Shown here in pieces: positions 4,612 through 32,800 of a stretch of 64,000 nucleotides of DNA. The translations under genes and the position numbers were made by a program. The notes beneath the pieces were generated by a model, which saw only the letters and a program-made list of their open reading frames with translations, was not told where the DNA came from and ran no database searches. The stretch is from Pristiophorus japonicus. Taxonomy: Eukaryota. The DNA lies in NCBI RefSeq assembly GCF_044704955.1, contig NC_091979.1:141918001-141982000 (forward strand), in the 5' to 3' direction. Numbering within the stretch: the stretch's first letter is position 1; the number at the start of each line of letters is the position of its first letter.

Positions 4612-5850
4612 AAAAGCAGGACCTCAAAGGTAGTAGTCTCCGGGTTACTGCCGATGCCACGTGATCGTGAGTACAGAAATAGGACGATAGAAAAGATGAA
4701 TGTGTGGCTGGAGAGATGGTGCAGGAGGGAAGGCTGTAGATTCCTGAGGCATTGGGACCGTTTCTGGGGGAGGTGGGACCTATACAAGCCGGACGGGTTG
4801 CATGTTAACAGAGCTGGGACCAGTATCCTCATGGGAGGTTTTGCTAGTGCTGTTGGGGAGGGTTTAAACTAACTTGGCAGGGGGATGGGAACCGGAGAAT
4901 AGATTTAGTGGGGAGAGAAGCAAATCTAGAAGACAGAGGGAACAGGGGCTGGAAAATAGACAACAAGAGAGTTGGCACCACTACATGGTATATACTTCAA
5001 TGCAAGGAGAATAGGGAATAAGGCAGATGAGCTGAGAGCACAAATAGACAATTGGGAGCACGATATTATAGCTATTACTGAGACATGGCTGAAAGAAGGG
5101 GAGGTATGGTAGCTCAATATTTCTCGTTACAGGGTTTTCAGATGGGATAGAGAGGGGGGTAAAAAAGGAGGGGGAGGGTCGCAGTATTAATAAAAGAAAC
5201 AATTACAGCTGTGAGAAGGAATGATATGTTAGAGAGGTCATCAAACGAGGCCATATGGGTTGAATTGAAGAACAAAAAAGGGGCAATCACACTACTGGGA
5301 GTGTACCATAGAACCCCAAACAGTCAGAGAGAGATAGAAGAACAAATATGTGGGCAAATTGCTGCGAAGTGTAAAAACTATAGAGCTGTAATAGTGGGGG
5401 ATTTCAACTACCCTAATATTAGCTGGGGGAAAAGTCGTGTGAATGTTAAAGAGGGTGAGGAATTCCCAAAATGCATTCAGGAGAATTTCTTTAGCCAGTA
5501 TGCAACAAGCCCAACATGGCAATTCTGGACTTGGTTTTGGGGAATTAAGAGGAGCAGGTGGAGGGGTTTCAATGGGAGAGCATTCCGGTGCTAGTGATCA
5601 TAATTCAGGAAGATTTAGGGTAGTTATGGAAAAGGACAAAGGTGGAACAGGGAAAAAAGTTCTCAAACTGGGGTAAAGCCAATTTTCCTGAGCTGAGATG
5701 CGATTTTGCCAAAGTGGACTGAAAATGGCTAGTTGATGATAAATCAGTGTCAGAGCAGTGGGATGCATTCAAAGAGGAGATCCTAAGGGTACAGAGCAAG
5801 TATGTTGCCTTAAAGAAAAAGGGAGGGGCTATCAAATCTAGAGCTCCTTG

Positions 5851-6061
5851 TGTTATGTCTTGAATAAAGAGTCAGACTAGGTACTGCAAGCTCAAAGTAA
5901 TTGTGACCGTAGTCTTTTATTACAGATCTCAGAGTGCCTCTCCAGCCTGTGAGGCCTCCTTATATACAGGTGCTCCCAAGTGATTGTGGGATCCCTTGGG
6001 TCTCTAAGGGATAAGCCCTCTGGTGGTTAGACATGGTAATTACAGGTGTACATACATAACA
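5851..6061 (-). repeat. 3' LTR of Gypsy element 1
   Basis: Direct repeat of 10175-10385; about 14 mismatches in 211 bp counted by eye. Confidence 0.95.
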
Positions 6062-9000
6062 ATACTCACCACCCCCCCCCCCCCCCCAAAGTCAATAGTG
6101 TAACTATTTATAATGTGAGTCAATCTGGGGCCTTCCTTTCCCTGGTTGATCATCTCGGTGCAAATGCTGGTGTTGGTGAGTCATTTGTTGGGCTTTCGCT
6201 GCGCTGCTGCGCAGCTGGCCTTGCTGGATTGCTGGGGGTGATGGGTTCTGCTTTGTGGTCAAGCGCTGGGTCAGTTGCCACTTGTGTGTGTGTTGGAGGG
6301 TCGAAAAAGGTAGAGTCTACTGTGGGTTGTTCTGGATAGTCCGTAAATCTGAGTTTGGTTTGGTCCAAGTGTTTTCTGCAGGTGAATCCATTTGCGAGTT
6401 TGACTACAAACACCCTACTCCCCTCTTTGGCCAAAATAGTGCCAGCAATCTACTTGGGACTTTGTCCATAGTTCAACACAAATACAGGATCATTTACTTC
6501 AATTTCTCGTGACACATTTGCATGATTATAATATGTATTCTGTTGAAGCCGCCTGCTCTCTACCTGTTCGTGTAGATCACGGTGGACTAACGAGAGCCTT
6601 GTCTTAAGTGCCCTTTTCATGAGCAGTTCAGCAGGAGGGATCCTGGTGAGCGAGTGAGGTCTTGTGTGGTAATTAAGCAGGACTCTGGATAAGCGAGTCT
6701 GCAGTGAGCCTTCAGCTACCCTTTTCAAGCTCAGCTTGATTGTTTGAACTGCTCGTTCTGCCTGACCGTTGGGTGCTGGCTTAAACGGGGCAGATGTGAC
6801 ATGTTTGACCTCATTGCGGGTCATGAATTCCTTGAATTCGGCACTGGTAAAGCACGGCCCATTGTCACTTACAAGGACATCAGGCAGACCGTGCATGGCA
6901 AACGTGGCCCGTAGACTTTCAATGATGGCAACGGACGTGCTTGCCGACATTATCTCACATTCAATTCACTTGGAATACACATCTACAACCACTAAAAACA
7001 TTTTTCTCAAGAATGGGCCTGCATAGTCGACATGAACCCTAGACCGCAGTTTGGAGGGCCAAGACCATAAACTTAGTGGTGCCTCCCTGGGTGCATTGCT
7101 TAACTGGGAACATGTATTACATTTGTGCACACAGAACTCTTAAGTCTGCATTGATACCGGGCCACCACACGTGGGATCTGGCTATCGCTTTCATCATTAC
7201 AATGCCTGGGTGGGTACTGTGCAGATCACTAATGAAAGTGTCCCTGCCCTTTTTTGGCACAACTACCCGATTACCCCATAGGAGGCAGTCTGCCCATATA
7301 GACATTTCATCTTTGCGCTGCTGGTACGGCTTTATTTCTTCCTATATCTCTAACGTGACACTAGACCAACTCCCGTGGAGCACACAGTTTTTTACTCAGG
7401 ACAGTAAGGGTCCTGGCTCGTCGGGCGGTAACAGGTGATTGCTCACTCTTGAATGCTTCCCATTACCATAACTAGATCTCCTGACTGTGCCATCTCCACC
7501 CCAGTGGTGGGCACTGGCAGCCCACTGAGAGCATCGGCACAGTTTTCTGTGCCTGACCTGTGGCAGATGGCGTAGTTGTATGCGGACAACATGAGCGCCC
7601 ATCTCTGAATACGGGCTGATGCATTCGTATTTATCCCCTCATTTTCAGAAAAGAGGGATATAAGCGGCTTATGGTCGGTTTCCAATTCAAATTTGAGTCT
7701 GAACAGATATTGATGCATTTTCTTTACCCTGTAAACACACGCTAACGCTTCTTTTCCGATCATACACTTGGCCTTAGACAGACTTCTGGATGCATAAGCA
7801 ACAGGTTGCAATTTCCCAAATTCATTAGCTTGTTGCAATACACACCCGACATCGTATGACGATGCATCACATGCTAGTACCAAACGTTTACATATATCGT
7901 ACAACAATAGCAATTTGTTTGAACATAACAGCTTCTTAGCTTTCTCAAAGGCATTTTCTTGGCTTTTACCCCATATCCATTCATCTCCTTTACGCTGTAA
8001 AGAGTGCAGGGGTTCTAACAATGTGCTAAGACCCAGTAAGAAGTTACCAAAGTAGTTCAGGAGTCCTAGAAACGACTGCAGCTCCGTCACGTTCTGTGGT
8101 CTTGGTGCATTTTTGATTGCCTCGGTCTTCGAATCGGTGGGCCTGATGCCGTCCGCTGCGATTCTTCTCCCCAGGAACTCCACTTCAGGCGCCAGGAAAA
8201 CGCATTGAGTGTTTTAGCCTGAGCCCCACACGATTAAGCCGACTAAGAACCTCCCCCAGGTTCTGCAGATGCTCGACGGTGTCCCGACCTGTAACCAAGA
8301 TATCGTCCTGGAAGACTACGGTGCACGGGACCAACTTTAGCAAGCTTTCCATGTTTCTCTGGAATATCGCCGTGGCCGATCGAATCCCAAACGGGCATCT
8401 GTTGTAAACGAAAAGACCTTTGTGCATGTTGATGCAGGTGAGACCTTTGGAAGATTCCTCCAGCTCCTGCATCATGTAGGCCGAGGTCAAGTCCAGTTTT
8501 GTGAACGTTTCCTTCCCGCCAGCATTGCAAATAGGTCGTCTGCCTTTGGTAGCGGGTATTGATCCTGCAGTGAGAAACAATTGATAGTTATTTTGTAATC
8601 ACCACAGATTCTAACGGTGCCGTCTCCCTTGAGGACTAGAACAATCGGACTGGCCCACTCAATTGAATTCGATCGGTGAAATGATGCCCTCTCATTGCAG
8701 CCTGTCCAGCTGGATCTCCACCCACTCTCATCATGTAAGATACCGCTCTCGCTTTGTGATGGATGGGTCACGCCCCCGGAATCAAATGGATGTGCACTTT
8801 TACTCCTTGGAACTTCCCGATGCCTGGTTCGAACAGCGCAGGGAACTTGCTTAGGACCTGGGCACATGAGGTGTCGTCGACGGACGAAAGCGCTTGGACG
8901 TCGTCCCAGTTCCAGTATACCTTTCTCAGCCAGCTCCTGACGAACAGCGTGGGGCCATCACCCGGTACCACCCAGAGTGGTAAATCATGCACCGCTCCAT

Positions 9001-10174
9001 CGTAGGAGACCTTTACGCTAGCACTGCCAATTTCGGGAATCAGTTCCTTTGTGTATGTTCTAAGTTTGGTACGAATAGGAGTCAGGGCTGGCCTTGAAGC
9101 TTTGTTGCACCACAACTTATCGACAGTCTTTTTACTCATTATGGACTGGCTTGCGCCCGTGTCCAGCTCCATGGACACCGGGAGTCCATTTAATTCAACC
9201 TTCAGCATTATCGGGGGACACTTTGTGGTAAATATGTGCACCCCATATACCTCTGCCTCCTCGGTCTGAGGCTCTGGTTTGTCATGATTCACCGTGGATC
9301 TGTCCTCCTCTGCAATATGGTGGTTTGCAGGATTAGCAGGGTTTGTAGCTCGCCTGCACATACGTTGGAGATATCCCATTGTTCCACAGCCCTTGCAAAC
9401 GTATCCTTTGAAGCGGCATGAATGGAATCGATGATCACCCCCACAGCGCCAACAAGGTGTTAATTGCCTTGTATTCACCACCCTTGATGGTGGACTCTGA
9501 GTCATCTGCGGATGTGCAGCTACAGGCGTGTAAGTCCTGCCATGTGCATTTCGATTCAAAAACATTACTTTGTTCACAGTACTTGCAGCAGCACTAGTGT
9601 GCTGGGAAATTTGTTTGGTATTGTCACTGGTGGAGATAAACGCCTGGGCTATTGCTTTGGCTTTACTCAAGGTTGGGGTCTCTACAGTCTAAAGTTTGCG
9701 AAGTATTACTTCATGGTCAATGCCAAGTACAAAGAAGTCCCTGAGCATATGCTCCAAGTGTCCTTCAAATACGCAATGTCCTGCAAGGCGCCTTAGCTCG
9801 GCGACATAGCTCGCCACTTCCTGGCCTTCAGACCTCTTTTATGTGTAGAACCGATACCTCGTCATCAGAACGCTTTCCTTATGGTTTGGATGCTCCCGGA
9901 CCAGTGTGCACAACTCATCGTATGACTTGTCTGTGGGTTTTGCTGGAGCGAGCATGTTTTTCATGAGGCCAAACGTTGGTGCCCCGCAAACGGTGAGGAG
10001 GATTGCCCTTCGTTTGGCAACGTTCCCTTCTCCTTCCAGCTCTTTGGCCACGAAGTATTGGTCAAGTCGTTCCATGAAGGTTTTCCAATCATCTCCCTCC
10101 GAAAATTTCTCCAGGATGCCCATAGTTCTCTGCATTGTTGCGTTGGGGTTCATCACCTGTATCTCATCGCCAGT

Positions 10175-10385
10175 TGTTATGTCTTAAATAAAGAGTCAGA
10201 CCAGGTACTGCAAGCTCAAAGTAAGTGTGACCGTAGGCCTTTATTACAGATCTCAGAGTGCCTCTCCAGCCTGTGAAGCCTCCTTATATATAGGTGCTCC
10301 CAAGGGATTGTGGGATCCCTTGGGATTCCAGGGGATAAGCCGTCTGGTGGTTAGACATGGTAATTACAGGTTTACATACATAACA
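10175..10385 (-). repeat. 5' LTR of Gypsy element 1
   Basis: TG...CA termini, adjacent PBS, TATA-like and AATAAA motifs on the - strand. Confidence 0.95.
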
Positions 10386-11366
10386 TCTTGGATGTCAAGG
10401 GACATATAGGGTAAGATAAAGAAAAAAAGGGAAGCTTATGACAGATACCGAGAACTCAATACTGCAGAAATTCTAGAGGAGTATAATAAATGCAGGGTGC
10501 AATTAAAAAAGATATCAGGAAAGCAAAGAGAAAGCTTGAGAGAATGTTGGCAAGTAAAATCAGGGAAAACCTAAAGATGTTTTATAAATACATTAAGGGC
10601 AAGAGGATAACTAGAGAAAGAGTGGGGCCTATTAGAGACCATAAAGGAAAGCTATAATAAGAACATAAGAATTAGGAATAGAAGTAGGCCATCTAGCCCC
10701 TCGAGCCTGCTCCGCCATTCAACAAGATCATGGCTGATCTGGCCGTGGACTCAGCTCCACTTACCCGCCCGCTCCCCGTAACCCTTAATTCCCTTATTGG
10801 TTAAAAATCTATCGATCTGTGATTTGAATACATTCAATGAGCTAGCCTCAACTGCTTCCTTGGGCAGAGAATTCCACAGATTCACAACCCTCTGGGAGAA
10901 GAAATTCCTTCTCAACTCGGTTTTAAATTGGCTCCCCCGTATTTGAGGCTGTGCCCCCTAGTTCTAGTCTCCCCTACCAGTGGAAACAACCTCTCTGCCT
11001 CTATCTTGTCTATCCCTTTCATTATTTTAAATGTTTCTATAAGATCACCCCTCATCCTTCTGAACTCCAACGAGTAAAGACCCAGTCTACTCAACCTATC
11101 ATCATAAGGTAACCCCCTCATCTCCGGAATCAGCCGAGTGAATCGTCTCTGTACCCCCTCTAAGGCTAGTATATCCTTCCTTAAGTAAGGTGATCAAAAC
11201 TGCACGCAGTACTTCAGGTACGGCCTCACTAATACCCTGTACAGTTGCAGCAGGACCTTCCTGCTTTTGTACTCCATTCCTCTCGCAATGAAGGCCAACA
11301 TTCCAATCGCCTTCCTGATCACATGCTGCACCTGCAAACTAACTTTTTGGGATTCATGCACAAGGA

Positions 11367-11994
11367 GGAGTCCGTGTTCCATGTTTTTATTGAATGCACA
11401 AGGTTGCAGCCCCTGTTCCACTATTTGAAGGGGCTGCTCCTGAAATTCTGGCTGCACTTCAGTCCCACTCTCCTGATCTTTGGGCACCCTGTGCGGAGGG
11501 GAGCGGGTAGGTCCGAAGGCCTCCTCGTAGGACTGCTCCTGGGCACGGCCAAGGGTGCCATCAGCCGGTCCAGGCAGCGGGCGGTCGAGGGGGTCGTTCA
11601 ACCTGACTGCCTGCCTCTCTTCCGCTCTGACATCCGGTCCAGGGTGTCCTTGGAGATGGAGCACGCGGTGTCCACCGGTACGCTCGCGGCCTTCCGCGAG
11701 AGGTGGGCACCGGAGGGACTGGAGTGCATCATCACGCCCGGCAACCAAATTTTAATTTGATTTTACGTTTTTTAAGTTTAATTTGTTTTAATTGCCGGTG
11801 CTTTTAGTGTCCCCCTCTCCTTTTATAGGGGGCACTGGAAAAAAGGAAAAATTTGATTTTAGTGCCCAAAAAAAAAAAACACAAAAAAACCCCAAAAAAA
11901 CCAAAAAAGGGCCTTGTAAATGTCTTGTGTGTGTCATCCAGGTCGGGTGGCACGGATACATGTTTTATGTTTTCGCAGGTAAACTCAAAAGAGT
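11367..11994 (+). mobile_element. Tx1-clade (L1 group) non-LTR retrotransposon, 5'-truncated copy 1
   Basis: Frame to TGA at 11760 reads ESVFHVFIECTRLQPLF...LLLKFWLHFSPTLLIFGHPV...LLLGTAKGAI...FRERWA, matching the recalled Xenopus Tx1 ORF2 C-terminus (tail of the CCHC knuckle). Flanked by TTCATGCACAAGGA at 11353-11366 and 11995-12008. Confidence 0.88.
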
Positions 11995-12008
11995 TTCATG
12001 CACAAGGA

Positions 12009-12653
12009 GGAGTCCGTGTTCCATGTTTTTTTATTGAGTGCACAAGGTTGCAGCCCCTGTTCCATTATTTGAAGGGGCTGCTCCTGAAATTCTGGCTGCA
12101 CTTCAGTCCCACTCTCCTGATCTTTGGGCACCCTGTGCGGAGGGGAGTGGGTAGGTCCGAGGGCCTCCTCGTAGGACTGCTCCTGGGCACGGCCAAGGGT
12201 GCCATCAGCCGGTCCAGGCAGCGGGCGGTCGAGGGGGTCGTTCAACCTGACTGCCTGCCTCTCTTCCGCTCTTACATCTGGTCCAGGGTGGCCTTGGAGA
12301 TGGAGCACGCGGTGTCCACCGGTACGCTCGCGGCCTTCCGCGAGAGGTGGGCACCGGAGGGACTGGAGTGCATCATCATGCCCGGCAACCAAATTTTAAT
12401 TTGATTTTACGTTTTAAAGTTTAATTTGTTTTAATTGCCGATGCTTTTAGTGTTCCCCTTCCCTTTTATAGGGGGCACTGGGGAAAATTGTGATTTTAGT
12501 GCCCAAAAAAAAAAACCAAAAAATAGAAAAACACAAAAAAAAACAAAAAAAAGGTGGGAAAAAAAAAGGGCCTTGTAAATGTCTGGAGTGTCACCCAGGT
12601 CGGGTGGCACCGTTTAATGTTTTATGTTTTTGCAGGTGAACTCCAAAAAGAGT
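12009..12653 (+). mobile_element. Tx1-clade non-LTR retrotransposon, 5'-truncated copy 2 (tandem)
   Basis: Same peptide, stop at 12404, same 5' truncation point. Flanked by TTCATGCACAAGGA at 11995-12008 and 12654-12667. Confidence 0.88.
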
Positions 12654-15264
12654 TTCATGCACAAGGACCTCCAGGTCCCTCTGCACCGCAGCATGTTGTA
12701 ATTTCTCCCCATTCAAATAATATTCTCTTTTACTGTTTTTTTTCCAAGGTGGATGACCTCACATTTTCCAACATTGTATTCCATCTGCCAAACCTTAGCC
12801 CATTCACTTAACCTATCTAAATCTCTTTGCAGCCTTTCTGTTTCCTCGACACAACCCGCTTTCCCACTAATCTTTGTGTCATCTGCAAATTTTGTTACAC
12901 TACACTCTGTCCCCTCTTCCAGGTCATCTATGTATATTGTAAACAGTTGTGGTCCCAGCACCGATCCCTGTGGCATACCACTAACCACCGATTTCTAACC
13001 CGAAAAGGACCCATTTATCCCGACTCTCTGCTTTCTGTTAGCCAGCCAATTCTCGATCCATGCCAATACATTTCCTCTGACTCCGCGTACCTTTATCTTC
13101 TGCAGTAACCTTTTGTGTGGCACCTTATCGAATGCCTTTTGGAAACCTAAATACACCACATCCATCGGTACACCTCTATCCACCATGCTCGTTATATCCT
13201 CAAAGAATTCCAGTAAATTAGTTAAACATGATTTCCCCTTCATGAATCCATGTTGTGTCTGCTTGATTGCACTATTTCTATTGAGATGTCCCGCTATTTC
13301 TTCCTTAATGATAGCTTCAAGCATTTTCCCCACTACAGATGTTAAACTAACTGGCCTATAGTTACCTGCCTTTTGTCTTCCCCCTTTTTTTAAACAGAGG
13401 TGTTACATTAGCTGGTACCTCCCCGGAGTCCAGAGAATTTTGACAGATTATAACGAATGCATCTGCTATAACTTCCACCATCTCTTTTAATACCCTGGGA
13501 TGCATTTCATCAGGACCAGGGGACTTGTCTACCTTGAGTCCCATTAGCCTGTCCAGCACTACCTCCCTAGTGATAGTGATTGTCTCAAGGTCCTCCCTTC
13601 CCACATTCCCGTGACCAGCAATTTTTGGCATGGTTTTTGTGTCTTCCACTGTGAAGACCGAAGCAAAATAATTGTTTATTAAGGTCTCAGCCATTTCCAC
13701 ATTTCCCATTACTAAATCCCCCTTCTCATCTTCTAAAGGACCAACATTTACTTTAGTCACTCTTTTCCTTTTTATATATCGGTAAAAGCTTTTACTATCT
13801 GTTTTTATGTTTTGCGCAAGTTTACTTTCGTAATCTATCTTTCCTTTCTTTATTGCTTTCTTAGTCATTCTTTGCTGTCGTTTAAAATTTTCCCAATCTT
13901 CTAGTTTCCCACTAACCTTGGCCACCTTATACGCATTGGTTTTTAGTTTGATACTCTCCTTTATTTCCTTGGTTATCCATGGCTGGTTATCCCTTCTCTT
14001 ACCGCCCTTTTTCACTGGAATATATTTTTGTTGAGCACTATGAAAGAGCTCCTTAAAAGTCCTCCACTGTTCCTCAATTGTGCCACCGTTTAGTCTGTGT
14101 TCCCAGTCTACGTTAGCTAACTCTGCCCTCATCCCACTGTAGTCCCCTTTGTTTCAGCACAGTACGCTCGTTTGAGACACTACTTCCTCACCCTCAATCT
14201 GTATTACAAATTCAACCATACTGTGATCACTCATTCCGAGAGGATCTTTTACCAGGAGATTGTTTATTATTCCTGTCTCATTACACAGGACCAGATCTAA
14301 GATAGCTTGCTCTCTTGTAGGTTCTGTAACATACTGTTCTAAGAAACAATCCCGTATGCATTCTATGAATTCCTCCTCCAGGCTACCCCGTGCGATTTGA
14401 TTTGACCAATCGATATGTAGGTTAAAATCCCCCATGATTACTGCCATTCCTTTTTCACATGCCTCTATTATTCCCTTGATTATTGTCCGCCCCGCCGTGA
14501 AGTTATTATTTGGGGGCCTATAAACTACGCCCACCAGTGACTTTTTCCCCTTACTATCTCTAATCTCCACCCACAATGAATCAACATTTTGTTCATTAGA
14601 GCCAATATCATCCCTTGCAACTGCCCTGATATCATCCTTTATTAACAGAGCTACCCCACCTCCTTTCCCTTCTTGTCTATCCTTCAGAATTGTCAGATAC
14701 CCCTGTATGTTTAATTCCCAGTCTTGGCCACCCTGCAACCACGTTTCTGTAATGGCCACCAAATCATACCCATTTGTAATGATTTGTGCCATCAACTCAT
14801 TTATTTATTTCGAATGCTGCGTGCGTTTAGGTAAAGTGTTTTAATACTAGCTTTTAAACCATGATTTTTAGTTTTGACCCCTCCTGCAGCCCCTTTATAT
14901 TCATACATATTGTCCCTTCCTATCACCTTGTGGTTTACACTTACCCCAGTGCTACTCTGCTCTGTTGCCTCCTGCCTTTTGCATTCTTTCTTGGGGTCCT
15001 GTTCATCTGCGCTCTCACCCACTCTAACTAGCTCAGAGCCCTCTCCTGGGTTCCGAATACTCCTCGCATTGAGGCACCGAGCTTTCAGGCTTGCCTTTTT
15101 ATTACACTTTGGCCCTTTAGAATTTTGCTGTACATTGGCCCTTTTTGTTTTTTGCCTTGGGTTTCTCTGCGCTCCACTTTTACTCATCTCCTTTCTGTCT
15201 TTTGCTTCTGTCTCCATTTTGTTTCCCTCTGTCTCCCTGCATTGGTCCCCATCCCCCTGCCATA

Positions 15265-18479: not shown

Positions 18480-21400
18480 TGTTACACTCGTAATAAATGG
18501 TCAGACTGAGTACTGTATGTAATGAGCAAGTATCACCTTAGCTCCTTTATTAAGCTCCCAGAGTGCAAGTACCTCGTGGGTGGCCTGCTTATATACTGTG
18601 CTTCCAAGGGATGCTGGGATCCCTTGGGACTCCAACAGGTGGGCCCTCTGGTGGTCAGGTGTGATGCAGGTTACAAGGGGTTAAATACATAACATCACTC
18701 TCCCGTGAAGTCAACAGTACACTTATTTACAAAGTGAGACAATCTAGGGCTTTGCGCTCCCTTGTTGATCGTCTCAGTACAAATGCTGGTGTGGGTGGGT
18801 TGTTCAGTTCTTCACTCGGCTGTTGGGCAGCCGGCCTTATTGGGCTGCTGGGGATGATGAGTTCGGTTTCGTGGTCAACTGTGATGTCAGTTGCCACTTG
18901 TGTGTGTGTGTTGGAAGGTCAAAGTTGGTGATGTCCTCTTCAGGTTGTTCGTAGCTGTTGGTGAACCGCAATTGGATTTGGTCCAAGTGTTTTCTGTGCG
19001 TTTGTCCATTAGTCAGTTTGACCTGAAACACCCTACTCCCCTCTTTGGCTGTGACGTGCCAGCGAGCCATTTGGTACCATGTCCATAATTGAGCACAAAC
19101 ACAGGATCATTGATCTCAATATCGCGTGACAAATTTGCGTGATCATGGTACACACTTTGTTGATGCCGCTTGTCCTCCACGTGATCATGTAGATCAGGGT
19201 GGACAAGAGAGCCTTGTTTTAAGCGCCCTTTTCATGAGCAGCTCAGCTGGGGGAATCCCGGTGAGTGAGTGGGATCTGGTGTGTTAGCTGAGCAGTACTT
19301 GGGACAACCGGGTCTGCAGGGAGCCTTCCGACACGTGTTTCAAGCTTTGCTTGATGGTCTGAACTGCCCGTTCTGCCTGGCTGTTGGATGCGGGCTTGAA
19401 CGGGGCAGATGTGACATGTTTGATCCCGTTGCGGGTCATGAATTCCTTGAATTCAGCACTGGTGAAGCACGGCCCATTGTCGCTGACTAGGACATCAGGC
19501 AAGCCGTGCGTGGCAAACATAGCTCGTAGGCTTTCAGTGGTGACCTTGGATGTGCTTACAGACATTATTGCACATTCAATCCATTTTGAGTAAGCGCCCA
19601 CGACAACCAAAAACATTTTGCCTAGGAATGGGCCGCATAATCTACATAGATCCTCCTCGACCACGGTTTGGATGGCCATGACCACAAACTTAACAGTGCC
19701 TCTTTAGGTGCATTGCTCAACTGAGAGCAAGTGTTGCACTGGCGCACGCATGACTCTAAATCTGAGTCGATGCCAGGCCACCACACGTGGGATCTGGCTA
19801 TGGCTTTCATCATTACGATGCCTGGGTGGGTGTTGTGCAGTTCACAAATAAATGTGTCTCTGCCTCACAAAAGACAGTCCACCTACAGGGACAGCTCATC
19901 TTTGCATCTGTGAAACAGCTTAATCGCTTCCTGCATCTCCACTGGGACACTGGACCAGCTCCCATGGAGGACACAGTTTTTTTTACCAAGGACAGTAAAG
20001 GATCCTGGCTGGTCCAGGTCCTGATCTGGCAGACCATAACGGGGGATTTCTCATTCTCAAATGCCTCCACAACCATGAGCAAGTCCGCTGGCTGTGCCAT
20101 TTCCACCCCGGTGGTGGGCAATGGTAGCCAACTGAGAGCATCTGCGCAATTCTCTGTGCCCAGTCTGTGGCGGATTACATAGTTGTATGCCGACAGCGTG
20201 AGCACCCATCTTTGGATGCGGGCAGAGGCATTGGTATTAATCCCTTTGCTCTCCGAGAATAGCGATATGAGCGGCTTGTGGTCAGTTTCAAGCTCGAACT
20301 TGAGGCCAAATAAGTACTGATGCATTTTTTTTTTAACCCATTAAACGCACGCCAGAGCCTCTTTTTCAACCATGCTGTGGGCCCTGGACAAACTCCTGGA
20401 TGCATATGCAACAGGTTGTAAAATTCCCGATTCATTAGCCTGTTGTAACACACACCTGACGCATCGCAAGCTAACACCAATCGTTTACATGGGTTATACA
20501 GGACAAGCAGTTTGTTAGAACACAATAAGTTTCTGGCTTTCTTAAAGGCACCCTCTTGTGAATTCCCCCATACCCAGTCGTCTCCCTTGCATAGTAGCAC
20601 ATGTAGGGGTTCTAGCAGGGTGCTTAACCCAGGTAGGAAATTACCAAAATAGTTAAGGAGCCCCAGGAACGACCGCAGCTCTGTCATGTTCTGTGGTCGC
20701 GGCGCGTTCTTGATGGCCTCCATCTTGGCGCCATGGGTCTGATGCTGCCTGCTGTGATTCTCCTTCCTAAGAATTCGACGTCCTGTGCCAGGAAAACACA
20801 CTTCGAGCATTTCAACTTGAGCCCCACGCAATCCAACCGACTAAGAACCTCCTCCAGATTCTTCAAGTGCTCCATGGTGTCCCGACCTGTAACCAATATG
20901 TCGTCCTGGAAGACCACTGTGCAAGGAACCAACTTTAGCAGGCTCTCCATGTTCCACTGGAAGATCGCTGCGGCCGACCGAATCCCAAACAGGCACCGGT
21001 TGTAGATAAACAGACCTTTGTGCGTGTTGATGCAGGTGAGGCCTTTCGAAGACTCCTCCAGCTCCTGCGTCATGTAGGCCGAGGTCAGGTTCAGCTTGGT
21101 GAACGTCTTCCCTCCAGTCAGGGTCGCAAATAGGTCATCTGCCTTGGGTAGCGGTTATTGGTCCTGCAGCGAAAAACGGTTAATCGTTACTTTATAGTCC
21201 CCGCAAATTCTAACCGTACTGTCCTTAAGTACCGGAACAATCGGACTGGCCCAGTCGTTGAATTCCACCGCGCGATGATGCCTTCACAGCTGTCCAGCCT
21301 GTTGCAGCCTGTCCAGCTCTATTTCCACTTTTTCACCCATCATGTATGGTACCGCCCGAGCCTTGTGGTGGATGGGTCTCATACCGGGAACCAAATGGAT

Positions 21401-22897
21401 CTGCACTTTCGCTCCCAAAAAGCTTCCAATGCCTGGCTTGAATAACGAAGGGAAATTGCTTAGAACCTGGGTACATGCGGTGTCGTCGACGGATGAAAGC
21501 GCTCGGATGTCGTCCCAGTTCCAGCGGATTTTCCCCCAGCCAGCTTCTACCAAACAACGTGGGGCCATCCCCTGGCACAATCCACAGCGGGAGTTCGTGT
21601 ACTGCTCCATCATAGGAGACTTTGACTTCTGCACTGCCAATTACAGGGATTAGTTCCTTGGTGTAAGTCCTTAGTTTGGTGTGAATGGGGCTGAGCTTGG
21701 GCCTGTGTGCCTTCTTTCCCCACAGCATATCGAAGGCCATTTTACTCATTATGGACTGACTTGCCCCCGTGTCCAGCTCCATAGACACTGGAATACCGTT
21801 CAGTTCAACTTTCAACATGATTGGTGGGCATTTCGTCATGAACGTGTGTACCCCGTACACCTCTGCCTCCTCAGTACGAGTTTCCAATTCCGTCTGATCC
21901 ACTGTGGATCGATCTTTCTCTACAACGTGGTGGTTTGCAGGGTTTGCAGCTCGCCTGCACATTCGTTGGAGGTGTCCCATTGTTCTGCAGCCATTGCACG
22001 CATAGTGCTTAAAGTGGCATTGATGGGGCCGATGATCACCTCCGCAGCGCCAACAGGATGTTAACTGCTTCGCATTAACAGATGACTCCGGACTCTGGGT
22101 CAGTTGAGGTCGGGCCACAGCAGCTGGCGTGTACGTTCTGCCCTGTACATTTCTGCTCAAAACTGACGTTACTTTATGCACAGTACTGGCCGAAACTTCT
22201 TTGTTCTGCAAAATCTGCTTGGTGTTGTCGCTGGTGGATATAAATGCCTGGGCTATCGTTATGGCTTTACTTAGATTTGGAGTTTCTACAGTCAATGGTT
22301 TGCAAAGGATTGTCTCATGTCCGATGCCCAGTACAAAAAAGTCTCTGAGCATTTGTTCTAGGAATCCCTCAAACTCACAATGTCCTGCAAGGCGCCTTAG
22401 TTCAGCGACGTAGCTCGCCACTTCCTGGCCCTCCGATCGTTGACACGTGTAGAAGCGATTATCTCGCCATCAAAACGCTTTCCTTAGGATTTAGGTGCTC
22501 CTGGACCAGCGTACACAATTCTTCGTAGGATTTCTGTTGGTTTTGCCGGGGCCAGGAGATTCTTCATGAGGGCATAGGTTGTTGCCCCAAGACAGTTGGG
22601 AGGATCACCTTTCGTTTGGTCATGTTCTCGTCCCCTTCCAGCTCGTTAGCCACGAAGTATTGGTTGCGTCTCTCCATGAAGGCCTCCCAATCGTCCCCTT
22701 CTGAGAACTTCTCCAGGATGCCGACTGTACTTTGCATTTTCGCACGGTTGTTCGTTACCTCGTCGCTAATTATTACACTCATAATAAATGGTCAGACTGA
22801 TAACTGTGTGTAATAAGTGTGACCTTAGCTCCTTTAATAAGACTCCAGAGTGCAGGTACCTCGTGGGAGGCCGGCTTATATACTGTGCCTCCAAGGG
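18480..22897 (-). mobile_element. Second Mag-like Ty3/Gypsy LTR retrotransposon, decayed, 5' LTR truncated
   Basis: Complete LTR at 18480-18694 (TGTTAC...ATAACA). Partial LTR at 22771-22897. PBS TAGCGACGAGGT. Gag-PR (ELDTGA), RT (FQDD), RNase H and integrase are homologous to element 1. Confidence 0.93.
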
Positions 22898-25584: not shown

Positions 25585-26460
25585 CAAGAACATAAGAAAT
25601 AGCCGGAGTAGGCCATCTGACCCCTTGAGCCTGCTCTGCAATTCAATGAGATCATGGTTGATCTGATCATGGGTCCAGCTTCACTTCCCTGCCCTCTCCT
25701 CATAACCCATGACTCTTTATTCTTCAAAAATCTGTCTATCTCCACCTTAAATATATTCAATGACCCAGCCTCCACAGCTCTCTGGGGTAGAGAATTCCAA
25801 AGATTCACGACCCTTTGACAGAAGAAATTCTTCCTCATTTCCGTTTTAAATGGGCGACCCCTTATTCGGAGACTAAGCTCCTTAGTTCTAGATTCCCGCA
25901 CGAGAGGAAACATCCTCTCTGCATCTACTCTGTCAAGCCCCCTCATAATCTTATACATTTCAATAAGATCATCTCTCAGTCTTCTTAGCTCCAATGAGTA
26001 TAGGCCCAACCTGCTCAACCTTTCTTCATTTGACAACCCCATCATCTCAGGAATCAGTCTCGTGAACCTACTCTGAACTGTCTCCAATGTAAGTATATCG
26101 CTCCTTAAATAAGGGGACCAAAACTGTGGTCTTACCAACATCCTGTACAGTTGTAGCAGGAAGTCCCTATTTTTATACACCACCCCCCTTGCAATAAAGG
26201 CCAACATTCCATTTGCTTTCCTAATTACTTGCTGTACCTGCAGTCTAACTTTTTGAGTTTCGTGTACAAGGACCCCTAGATCCCTCTACCACAGCATTTT
26301 GTAATCTCTCCCCATTTAAATAATAATTTGCTTTTTTATTTTTCCTACCGAAGTGGATAACCTCACATTGTACTTCATCTGCCAAATTTTTGTCCACTCA
26401 TTTAGCCTGTCTATATAATTTGCAGATTCTTTGCGTCCTCCTCATAACTTGCTTTCCCGC
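25585..26460 (-). mobile_element. CR1 3' fragment
   Basis: ORF 25584-26207 is a CR1 C-terminus; TTCTTATG tail. Confidence 0.88.
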
Positions 26461-29841: not shown

Positions 29842-32800
29842 TTAGGCGGAAGAGGCGGCCATTTAGCCCCTCGAGCCTGCTCCACCATTTAATAAGATCT
29901 TGGCCTCAACTTCACTTCCCTGCCCGCTCCTCATAAACCCTTCACTCTCTTATCGCTCAAAAATCTGTCTATGCCACCTTAAATATATTCAATGACCCCG
30001 CCTCCACAGCTTTTTGGGGTAGAGAATTCCACAGCTTTATGACCTCAGAATAAATTCCTCATCAGTTCTAAAACTTTTTTCTGAAACTATGCCCCCTAGT
30101 TCTAGAATCCTCCGCGAGTGGAAACATCCTCTCTGCATCCACCTTGTTGAGCCCCCTCATTATCTTATGTTTCAATAAAATCACCTCTCTTCTAAACTCC
30201 AATAAGTATAAGCCCAACCTTTCTTCATATGACAACCCTTTCAGCTCGGGAATCAACCTCGTGACCCTTCTCTGAATTGCCTCCAATGCAAGTATATCCT
30301 TCCTTAAATAAGGAGACCAAAACTGTATGCAGTATTCTAGATGTGGCCTCATCAATACCCTGTACAGTTGTAGCAGGACTTCTCTGCTTTTATATTCTCA
30401 TCACCCTTGCAATAAAGGCCAACATTCCACTTGCTGTCCTGATTACTTGCTGCACCTGCATACTAACTGTGTTTCATGCACAAGGACACCCAGGTCCCTC
30501 TGTACTGCAGCATTTTGTAATTTCTCCATTTAAATAATTTGCTTTTTTATTTTTCCTGCCAAAATGGATAACCTCATACTTTCCCACATTAGACTCCATC
30601 TGTCAAATGTTTGCCCACTCACTTAGCCTGTCTATATCCTTTTGCAAATTGTGTGTCCCCTCACAACTTGCTTTCCCACCCATCTTTGTATCATTAGCAA
30701 ACTTGGCTGCATTACACTCGGTGCCTTCATCCAAATCATTAATATAGACTGTAAGTATTTGGGGCCCTAGCACTGATCCCTGTGGCACCCCACAAGTTAG
30801 TTTTCCAACCTGAAACTGACCCATTTATCCTGACTCTGTTTTCTGTTAGTTAGCCAATCCTCTATCTAAGCTAATGTATTACCCCCCAACCCTGTGAGCT
30901 CTTATCTTGTGCAGTTACCTTTTATTTGGCACCTTATCGAATGCCTTCTGGAAATACACATCCACTGGTTTCCCCCTTATCCACTCTGCTCGTTACATCC
31001 TTACAGAACTCGAGCAAATTTGTCAAACATGACTTCCCTTTTATAAAACCATGCAGCCTCTGCTTGACTGTATTTATACTTTTCCAAATGTCCCGCTACT
31101 GCTTCCTTAATAATGGACTCCAGCAATTTCCCAACAATAGATGTTAGGCTAACTGGTCTATAGTTTCCTGCTATCTGTCTGCCTCCTTTTTAAAAAAAAA
31201 ACAGGGGCGTTACATTTGTGGTTTTCAGACAGTTGGGACCTCTCCAGAATCCAGGGAATTTTGGTAATTACAACCAATGCATTCACTATCTCAGCAGCCA
31301 CTTCTTTTAAGACCCGAGGATGCAGGCCATTAGGTCCAGGAGACTTCTCCACCTTTAGTCCTATTATTTTGCTGAATACTGTTTAGTGAAAGTGATTGTT
31401 TTAAGTTCCTCCCTCCCTATAGACCCTTGATTATTATTGGGATGTTTTTAGTGTCTTCTACCCTGAAGTCAGATACAAAATATTTGTTCAAAGTTTCTAG
31501 CATTTCCCTGTTCCCCCATTAATTCTCCAGTCTTGTCCTCTAAGGGACAAACATTTACTTTAGCTACTCTTCCTTTTTACATACCTATAGTTCTTATGTT
31601 TTTATATTTCTCACTAGTTTCATAATCCACCTTCTCATTTTTTTTAGTCCTTTGCTGATTTAAAAATAATTCCCAATCCTCCTGCTAATCATGTGCAGTT
31701 GTACAGGGCCTTGGTGAGGCCTCACCTGGAATATTGTGTTCAGTTTTGGTCTCCTAATCTGAGGAATGACGTTCTTGCTATTGAGGGAGTGTGGTGAGGG
31801 TTCACCAGACTGATTCCCGGGATGGCAGGACTGACATATGAGGAGAGACTGGATCAACTGGGCCTTTATTCACTGGAGTTTAGAAGGATGAAAGGGGATC
31901 TCATGGAAACGTATAAAATTCTGGCAGGGCTGGACAGGTTGGATGCAGGAAGAATGTTCCCGATGTTGGGGAAGTCCAGAACCAGGGGACATAGTCTAAG
32001 GATAAGGGGTAAGCCATTTCAAACTGAGATGAGGAGAAACTTCTTCAGAGAGTTGTTAACCTGTGGAATTCCCTACCGCAGAGAGTTGTTGATGCCAGTT
32101 TATTGGATATATTCAAGAGTTAAATATAGCCCTTACAGCTAAAGGGATCAAGGGGTATGGAGAGAAAGCAGGAAAGGGGTACTGAGATGAATGCTCAGCC
32201 ATGATCTTATTGAATGGTGGTGCAGGCTCGACGGGCCTACTCCTGCACCTATTTTCTATGTTTCTATTGCAACTTTGTATGCCATTGTATTCAATTGGAT
32301 ATCATCCTTTACTTCCTTAGTTAGCCACAGATGGTTCTCTCAAAAGTCTTTCCTTCTCACGAATATATTTTTGTTAAGAATCATGAAATATCTCCTTAAA
32401 TGTCTGCCACTGTTCATCAACAATCTTACATTTTAATCCATTTTCCCAGTCCACTTTGCCTTCATACCTTTGTAATCACCTTTATTTAAGATCAGGACAC
32501 TGGTTTTAGATCCAACTTTCTCACCCTCCAACTGAATTTGAAATTCAACCATGCTATGATCACTCTTTCCTAGAGGATTTTTGACTATGAGATCATTTAT
32601 TAATCCTGTCTCATTACACAGTACCAGATCCAAGATAGCCTGATCCCTGGTTAGTTCCGCAACATACTGTTCAAGGAAATCATTTTGAACTCTTGAGCTC
32701 TATGAACTCTTCAAGGCTATTTGATTTGTCCAATCAATATGAAGATTAAAATAACCCATGATTATTGCTGTACCTTTCTTACAAACCTCCATTATTTCTT

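Follow-up and report, generated by a model that had tools for sequence, protein, structure and literature searches.

In the window analysed here, a 64,000-nt stretch of the Pristiophorus japonicus genome (contig NC_091979.1, positions 141,918,001-141,982,000), the second open reading frame (ORF2) of a CR1 long interspersed nuclear element (LINE) is interrupted by two inserts which, judged from their sequence, are 5'-truncated copies of a young LINE of the Tx1 clade. Searches over the 5.9-Gb genome revealed 14,553 ends of this family that adjoin the same exact CR1 14-mer, in agreement with the target-specific family and the oriented preference for a single CR1 ORF2 site that an initial annotation of the window had proposed. 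The pair is probably the product of a LINE that enters a fixed CR1 site and duplicates 14 bp of it, likely by target-primed reverse transcription aided by pairing of the RNA end with the target.

A Tx1 family at a single site of CR1

The 14-mer TTCATGCACAAGGA is present without mismatch at positions 11353, 11995, 12654 and 30473 of the window and with two mismatches at 26259 (5 matches with up to two mismatches versus 0.81 expected). As initially annotated, three of these occurrences flank two Tx1-like 3' ends (628 and 645 bp) that are arranged head to tail on the plus strand and antisense to the CR1 ORF2 (Table 1). Excision of both inserts restores the CR1, as had been claimed: the minus-strand frame reads on across the site (QRDLEVLVHESQKVSLQ), and the insert-free sequence aligns through it with three other CR1 copies of the window. 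The inserts are 90.6% identical across the entire repeat, code for the last 131 residues of the Tx1 ORF2, start at the identical 5' base of the element and both terminate in AAAAGAGT without the poly(A) tail that the annotation, too, had found missing. Of 400 coding positions, 8 distinguish the two inserts, for the most part at sites polymorphic throughout the family; because the copies carry different variants there, a simple tandem or assembly duplication was rejected as the origin of the pair. None of the contigs from four sequencing runs spans the array, which is thus without independent confirmation.

Recovery of a full-length copy, proposed in the annotation as a check, was achieved by extending 31 of the best loci among the 2420 candidates of a genome DNA search with the element; the full-length element measures ~7.19 kb (7185 bp), with an ORF1 of 698 aa and an ORF2 of 1299 aa in the natural copy L057 (both frames are intact in L054 and L057). 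ORF2 contains an apurinic/apyrimidinic endonuclease (APE) domain (PF03372, Exo_endo_phos, residues 6-227), a reverse transcriptase (RT) domain (PF00078, RVT_1, 512-761) and a zinc knuckle (PF13966, zf-RVT, 1137-1180, below the cut-off), and is 49% identical to the Xenopus Tx1 ORF2 over 1297 aligned residues (100% of the query), the best unnamed protein matches being turtle and sturgeon gene models. The ORF1 lies upstream and separate; it displays a CCHC motif without a Pfam match. The APE endonuclease, the RT, the zinc knuckle, the separate ORF1 and Tx1L as closest named relative are those features by which the Tx1 clade is recognized. Family copies differ by ~1.5% (inserts ~98% alike), and numerous ORF2 frames are intact, some in runs at 7.2-kb spacing with up to about ten consecutive frames on contig C1. 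Long arrays with full-length copies every 7.2 kb, many with an intact 1306-codon frame, were observed on C1 at 9.71-9.77, 144.99-145.05 and 152.93-153.00 Mb. No Tx1-CR1 fusion gene models were present at 38% identity or more among the 120 homologues listed. In a sequencing run of a second organism (X8, corresponding to window positions 11422-11803) the ORF2 end is ~99% identical (381 bases, 2 differences); an empty CR1 site occurs in this run as well, the Tx1 3' junction lying outside the covered part.

One 22-base variant of the element's end was found in 2477 genome copies (control 0), and the exact site follows in 1664 of them (67%); for all end variants together, the 14,553 junctions stand among 79,392 occurrences of the 14-mer genome-wide, with 0 and 5 hits for the reversed-pattern controls. 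A tabulation of 3' flanks, likewise proposed in the annotation, was made for the first 100 consecutive ends on contig C1, 98 of which were scored (two identical contexts, both on target, were dropped): the 14-mer followed with at most 3 mismatches in 86 of the 98, continuing into CR1 in 37 cases, into another copy in 46 and into other sequence in 3. On target were also 23 of the 30 best DNA matches and, by script, 24 of 30 protein matches (two others are CR1-flanked but mis-cut; three loci repeat earlier ones). Tx1 families have been called target-specific when over 20% of their flanks fall within a single type of repeat (PMC4494074); here, the exact site follows 67% of the ends of one variant. 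The site of a sister lineage in a second CR1 family (see below) followed none of the 2477 ends, despite 6,251 exact such sites in the genome; the flanks are CR1 ORF2 and not Mariner-N4_AMi, the insertion site that characterizes Tx1-Mar.

The ~14-bp duplication mirrors the local target variant at both ends, on target as well as off target (e.g. the local 14-mer variants of L031, L070 and L181 recur at both ends), and the insertions are therefore independent; 93 distinct locus-breakpoint pairs were counted. As rough values, because the start of C1 contains duplicated blocks, 12-13 of the first 100 young CR1 sites and, according to the cluster count, ~17% of all exact sites are filled. The annotation had placed the target in the CR1 RT gene: the site is indeed within CR1 ORF2, where it encodes DLGVLVHE, but it lies ~25 residues beyond the Pfam RT core of the CR1 sibling L120 (RVT_1 at 125-336 of its frame) and not inside it. 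It is positioned ~700 bp from the CR1 3' end, presumably in the portion that most copies retain. Minimal inserts of ~12-18 bases, consisting of the terminal hairpin only, were seen between duplications at L130, L137, L140, L149 and L192.

The host element is taken here to be a CR1 on account of motifs (KAFDKVPH, GVPQGSVLGP, DLGV) and its tail rather than of a tree. It shows CR1-group features, namely an ORF2 with RT and a short-repeat tail (10657-10672) without poly(A); among CR1-group elements, poly(A) marks Zenon only, according to PMC13343379. The annotation had also supposed that the family puts the invaded CR1 out of function. Only the 12-13 of 100 young sites given above are filled, however, and most targeted CR1 copies were probably dead before insertion, because the host copy has stops elsewhere than at the insertion site, its siblings are only 92-96% alike compared with ~98% for the inserts, and a frame open over all 704 codons examined is present in none of 29 empty siblings.

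Table 1. Coordinates of the Tx1 array, its CR1 host and the empty homologous sites in the window.
Feature	Position	Strand	Remarks
Host CR1 LINE, 3' part	10657..11366	-	End of ORF2, 3' untranslated region (UTR), short CTTATGTT-type tail at ~10657-10672; from sequence and alignment to window CR1 copies
14-bp target duplication, copy one	11353..11366	+	Terminal GGA is shared with the element at the breakpoint (microhomology)
Tx1 copy 1	11367..11994	+	5'-truncated at 6546 of the 7185-bp element; ORF2 stop 11758-11760; 3' UTR; end variant GGTAAACTCAAAAGAGT
Predicted terminal hairpin AAACTC-AAAA-GAGTTT of Tx1 copy 1	11981..11996	+	Closed by the target's first bases; ViennaRNA fold
14-bp duplication, copy two	11995..12008	+	Separates the two inserts
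Tx1 copy 2	12009..12653	+	5' breakpoint as copy 1, other family haplotype; end variant GGTGAACTCCAAAAAGAGT; frame shifted by a 2-bp insertion
14-bp duplication, copy three	12654..12667	+	Runs on into CR1
Host CR1 ORF2, 5' part (endonuclease, RT)	12654..14977	-	Stops and frameshifts; from translation; RT family shown on sibling L120
Empty homologous site, older CR1 subfamily	26259..26272	+	Two mismatches; GAGT precedes
Empty homologous site, older CR1 subfamily	30473..30486	+	Exact 14-mer; GTGT precedes

Sister lineages and the choice of the site

An older sister family ends in AAAATAGT, and 16 of 30 copies are situated within a ~270-bp repeat with TGTAATG...CATTACA ends and an AATAAA motif, which by its appearance looks like a solo long terminal repeat (LTR); the insertions lie ~30 bases inside the repeat start. 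Closer sisters end in AAAAGAGT and sit either in the LTR-like repeat or, within a second family of CR1, at the homologous site, which encodes DLGVLVHR. At the LTR-like site, different sister lineages were found stacked together (L221-L300).

The annotation had interpreted the terminal GAGT of the element as CR1 target sequence carried over from a donor locus. The empty sites quoted for comparison are present as described, but they lie in CR1 subfamilies of greater age, which share only 72-74% identity with the host copy, whereas the host's own subfamily carries GGGA before the 14-mer (24,450 exact 32-mers genome-wide; 29 of the first 30 empty). That the 3' end consists of carried-over CR1 bases was rejected because sisters at the LTR-like target end in the same way (AAAAGAGT or AAAATAGT), because of the GGGA in the host subfamily and because GAGT pairs with ACTC in the predicted terminal hairpin (ViennaRNA). 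Captured target sequence appears instead to be located at the 5' head and to stem from the LTR-like target: GTGGAGC(T/A)GT(T)GG precedes AGGCGTG in the heads of the two lineages that target CR1 and corresponds to the 13-base duplicated target of the LTR lineage. Of 2559 window 25-mers, none matched one such duplication equally well, while 560 matched a second, more diverged LTR duplication as well as the head does, which is not significant. Because the heads of the CR1 lineages keep these 13 bases, the LTR-like repeat may have been the first target and CR1 a later one.

Comparison of six LTR-targeting, seven second-CR1-targeting and eight CR1-targeting family copies revealed ~90% ORF2 identity among the three lineages. 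Within 240 endonuclease positions, majority residues differ at 2 between the sisters and at 9 between either sister and the CR1-targeting family, the endonuclease hairpin loop being identical in all three; outside endonuclease and RT, 36-42 changes were counted. Insertions away from the usual target were collected in 20 rows, four of which are not first off-target insertions and were set aside; the remaining 16 (two of them read one base shifted) have T as their first base throughout; TTC opens 12 and TTCA 9 of them, and the sequence further on is random. Off-target sites of the LTR-targeting sister begin with TG in 11 of 13 cases, as in its own target; the errors of each lineage are thus similar to the start of the target that this lineage normally uses.

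According to the preferred mechanism, a loosely specific endonuclease would nick the CR1 site, and the 3' end of a read-through RNA would pair with the nicked strand during target-primed reverse transcription. The bottom-strand nick would fall at, or at most 1 base from, GGGA|TTC and the top-strand cut 14 nt downstream; in the absence of poly(A), transcripts would extend into the duplication and their extension bases anneal to the primer, so that each lineage would favour sites starting like the repeat of its donors. The lineage would have shifted from the LTR-like target to CR1, its head still carrying 13 bases of the former duplication. Read-through RNAs do serve as templates, as indicated by the CR1 14-mer between the units of the off-target arrays L050 and L149, and the RNA end likely helps to choose the site, because close relatives with nearly the same endonuclease use other sites. 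According to PMC6795142 and PMC7265360, RNA that carries downstream target sequence can anneal to the target through it; this sequence improves priming in R2Ol and is required for accurate priming in R1Bm.

That the same family and target are involved, with specificity residing wholly in the protein (the endonuclease or other ORF2 changes) and no role of the RNA end, is considered rather unlikely, although several observations speak for it. The Tx1L endonuclease alone nicks nearly only its own site (PMC1950540); the CR1-targeting lineage deviates from both sisters at the 9 of 240 endonuclease positions given above; and the off-target sites show an excess of G at -4 and -3 (11 and 12 of the 20 rows, including the four that are not true first insertions), which is inexplicable by RNA pairing downstream of the nick. 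Yet the LTR- and second-CR1-targeting sisters, with two endonuclease differences and the same hairpin loop, use TGTAG and TCTGT sites, respectively, and the resemblance of off-target sites to the target is lost within 4-5 bases downstream of the nick. A merely passive association, i.e. one Tx1 insertion amplified inside a mobile CR1 or an assembly duplication, would account for the identical short inserts that recur in the duplicated blocks at the C1 start (47-bp spacing) and for certain breakpoints shared between loci, but it is hardly credible in view of dozens of breakpoints, of duplications that track the local CR1 variant, of hits in young and old CR1 subfamilies, of off-target insertions with their own duplications and of the coding differences between the window copies. 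Some results weigh against RNA-aided targeting and the proposed switch of target: 12 of the 98 consecutive C1 ends (~12%, at 10 loci) are off target; the nine endonuclease changes together with the 36-42 outside endonuclease and RT could alone account for the switch; and a quick protein tree with three outgroups only, in which the CR1-targeting family is a single young cluster (support 90) and its sisters are older, leaves the order of the three lineages open.

Arrays and shared 5' breakpoints

Arrays were found genome-wide, which bears out the earlier view that the 14-bp duplication regenerates the target and lets copies stack. In the least biased sample, 74 clusters of exact ends, at least two ends are present in 14 clusters (versus 8.8% expected from random filling) and at least three in 6 (versus 0.5%). 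A 30-70-fold preference for occupied sites was replaced on these fuller counts by a ~2-fold (arrays of at least two) and ~15-fold (at least three) excess.

In 18 arrays, 36 of 52 adjacent truncated pairs share the same 5' breakpoint (35 further pairs have no visible upstream start), compared with 28 of 4267 pairs between loci (0.7%; four of these are one locus fetched twice). Array neighbours differ by 0-3.4%, mostly 1-2%, as do random pairs of the family, and were therefore derived from different donors; the differences concern family-wide polymorphisms, often combined with different 3' end variants. Microhomology hot spots are insufficient as sole cause of the shared breakpoints, since 6 of the 14 junctions scored have none. 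In the preferred reading, a newcomer would mostly enter the duplication on the 5' side of the resident copy; its cDNA, on reaching the resident's start, would pair with the resident's top strand and so adopt the same breakpoint. The junction of L086, which lacks 11 of the 14 duplication bases and is repeated upstream, and those of L096 and L165, where the outer duplication alone is lost, would fit insertion at the 5' duplication with cDNA pairing to the resident's start.

Duplication at the DNA level, by slippage or nick-induced sister exchange between the 14-bp repeats, combined with gene conversion would likewise produce arrays with common breakpoints, and certain loci speak for it: alternate units share rare variants in L134 and L176, so that later DNA-level duplication also acts; the units of L135 show no difference in 342 coding bases; and the distance from the breakpoint to the first difference between neighbours exceeds that expected under uniform spacing (by a mean ratio of 1.85 in 17 pairs, which are non-independent). 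The longer identical stretch after the breakpoint weakly hints at short copying from the neighbour. As a general explanation, however, DNA duplication is very improbable, for most neighbours differ in haplotype over the whole unit, in 5 of 17 pairs to within 13-43 bases of the breakpoint, they carry different 3' end variants, their divergence equals that of random pairs, and whole-unit conversion would be required in most of the 18 arrays. Entry at the resident's 5' side with adoption of its breakpoint is itself burdened by several observations besides the variant sharing in L134 and L176: the excess of clusters with two or more ends is only moderate; the breakpoint sample favours long, well-conserved copies; the upstream unit is shorter in 20 pairs, longer in 13 and of unknown relative length in 33, which does not settle the side of insertion; rare variants are not clearly fewer in upstream units; and some breakpoints, e.g. 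6228, 6435 and 6732, recur between loci.

Some arrays and junctions have a peculiar composition. In L149 (5868-9142), 14 or more short units have accumulated at a poor off-target site (TAAAAGAGAAATTG); their end variants are mixed, and two breakpoints are shared among them. In L176 (6045-6116; C1 near 168.398 Mb), a complete tRNA-Asp (Rfam 51 bits, ARAGORN) is joined to the last 115 bases of Tx1 at the CR1 site inside the array, which represents either a template switch or a tRNA-headed passenger. Below the Rfam/ARAGORN call, a tRNA-like 3' half precedes a Tx1 end at the CR1 site in L174 (~5715-5760), and in L042 (~480-530) a short unknown piece with a T run at its end is followed by a 12-base Tx1 end.

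Relation to known elements and further features of the window

Tx1 families of other names have other targets: Keno inserts into U2 snRNA, Mutsu into 5S rDNA, Dewa into tRNA arrays and Kibi/Koshi into microsatellites. The closest named relative, Tx1L of Xenopus laevis (UniProt 'Transposon TX1 uncharacterized 149 kDa protein', P0004; ORF2 49% identical end to end), is, according to PMC4494074 and PMC1950540, an APE-type site-specific LINE inside another mobile element, Tx1D; it targets a DNA transposon, however, whereas the present family inserts into LINE coding sequence in antisense orientation. The crocodilian families Tx1-Mar, Tx1-8_Crp, Tx1-4_AMi, Tx1-9_AMi and SINEU, as described in PMC4494074, also occupy fixed sites in transposons (Mariner, LTR retrotransposons, Harbinger) and exhibit tandem insertions around a duplication as well as RNA-derived 5' additions; the LTR-targeting sisters are of this same known kind. 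In contrast to the family described here, the crocodilian ones are old (85-87% to consensus), SINEU has poly(A), and the portion of PMC4494074 examined names no LINE target and reports no shared 5' breakpoints. Drosophila R1 resembles the present system, in the accessible part of PMC2718515, by its 14-bp duplication, duplication-separated tandem arrays, off-target copies, array growth at the 5' duplication and, in one group, precise 5' junctions ascribed to RNA-borne target sequence; it differs by its clade and its 28S rDNA target, and no adoption of a truncated neighbour's breakpoint is described in that part.

Tx1 elements aimed at DNA transposons or LTR elements (PMC4494074) and tandem stacking (PMC4494074, PMC2718515) are thus already in print. 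In the literature searched, which did not extend to Repbase, Dfam, several primary papers and the target-alignment supplements of PMC4494074, neither a CR1-targeting Tx1 nor adoption of a neighbour's breakpoint was found; the available portions of PMC8869645, PMC3747384, PMC4585706 and PMC13343379 contain nothing on a CR1 target. The known Tx1 targets (RNA genes, microsatellites, DNA transposons and LTR elements) are extended by a LINE coding region, and this by a young family that has over 14,000 junctions, includes many intact copies and fills about one eighth of the sites of a major CR1 subfamily. The three ~90% identical lineages with three targets make the question of protein- versus RNA-based retargeting directly testable. 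In the shared breakpoints, the 5'-joining step, which is poorly understood, has left natural records by the thousand. An APE-type element of a vertebrate that is directed at a repeat both abundant and dispensable is, moreover, of interest for inserting genes site-specifically. As a tentative wider proposal, a vertebrate LINE lineage might parasitise LINEs and retarget itself via its own read-through RNA: bases copied from the landing site of the donor would pair with the nicked DNA, a single stray insertion of an active copy into another abundant repeat could found a lineage with changed target (the LTR first, two CR1 families afterwards) while the endonuclease hardly changes, and residents would template the 5' joint of newcomers.

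Further features were observed in the window. The tail of the host CR1 adjoins a short plus-strand fragment of a different CR1-like ORF2 (10400-10656). Two related elements (5851-10385 and 18482-22897), 74% identical over 4.5 kb, are LTR retrotransposon-like, with direct terminal repeats of ~210 bp and ~130 bp. The 3' UTR of both Tx1 copies contains a T-rich run with CAG|G at its end (11965-11980 and 12625-12640), which is splice-acceptor-like, as well as TTTGCAGGTG, the reverse complement of CACCTGCAAA located ~20 bases upstream of the CR1 site, a match that may be due to chance.

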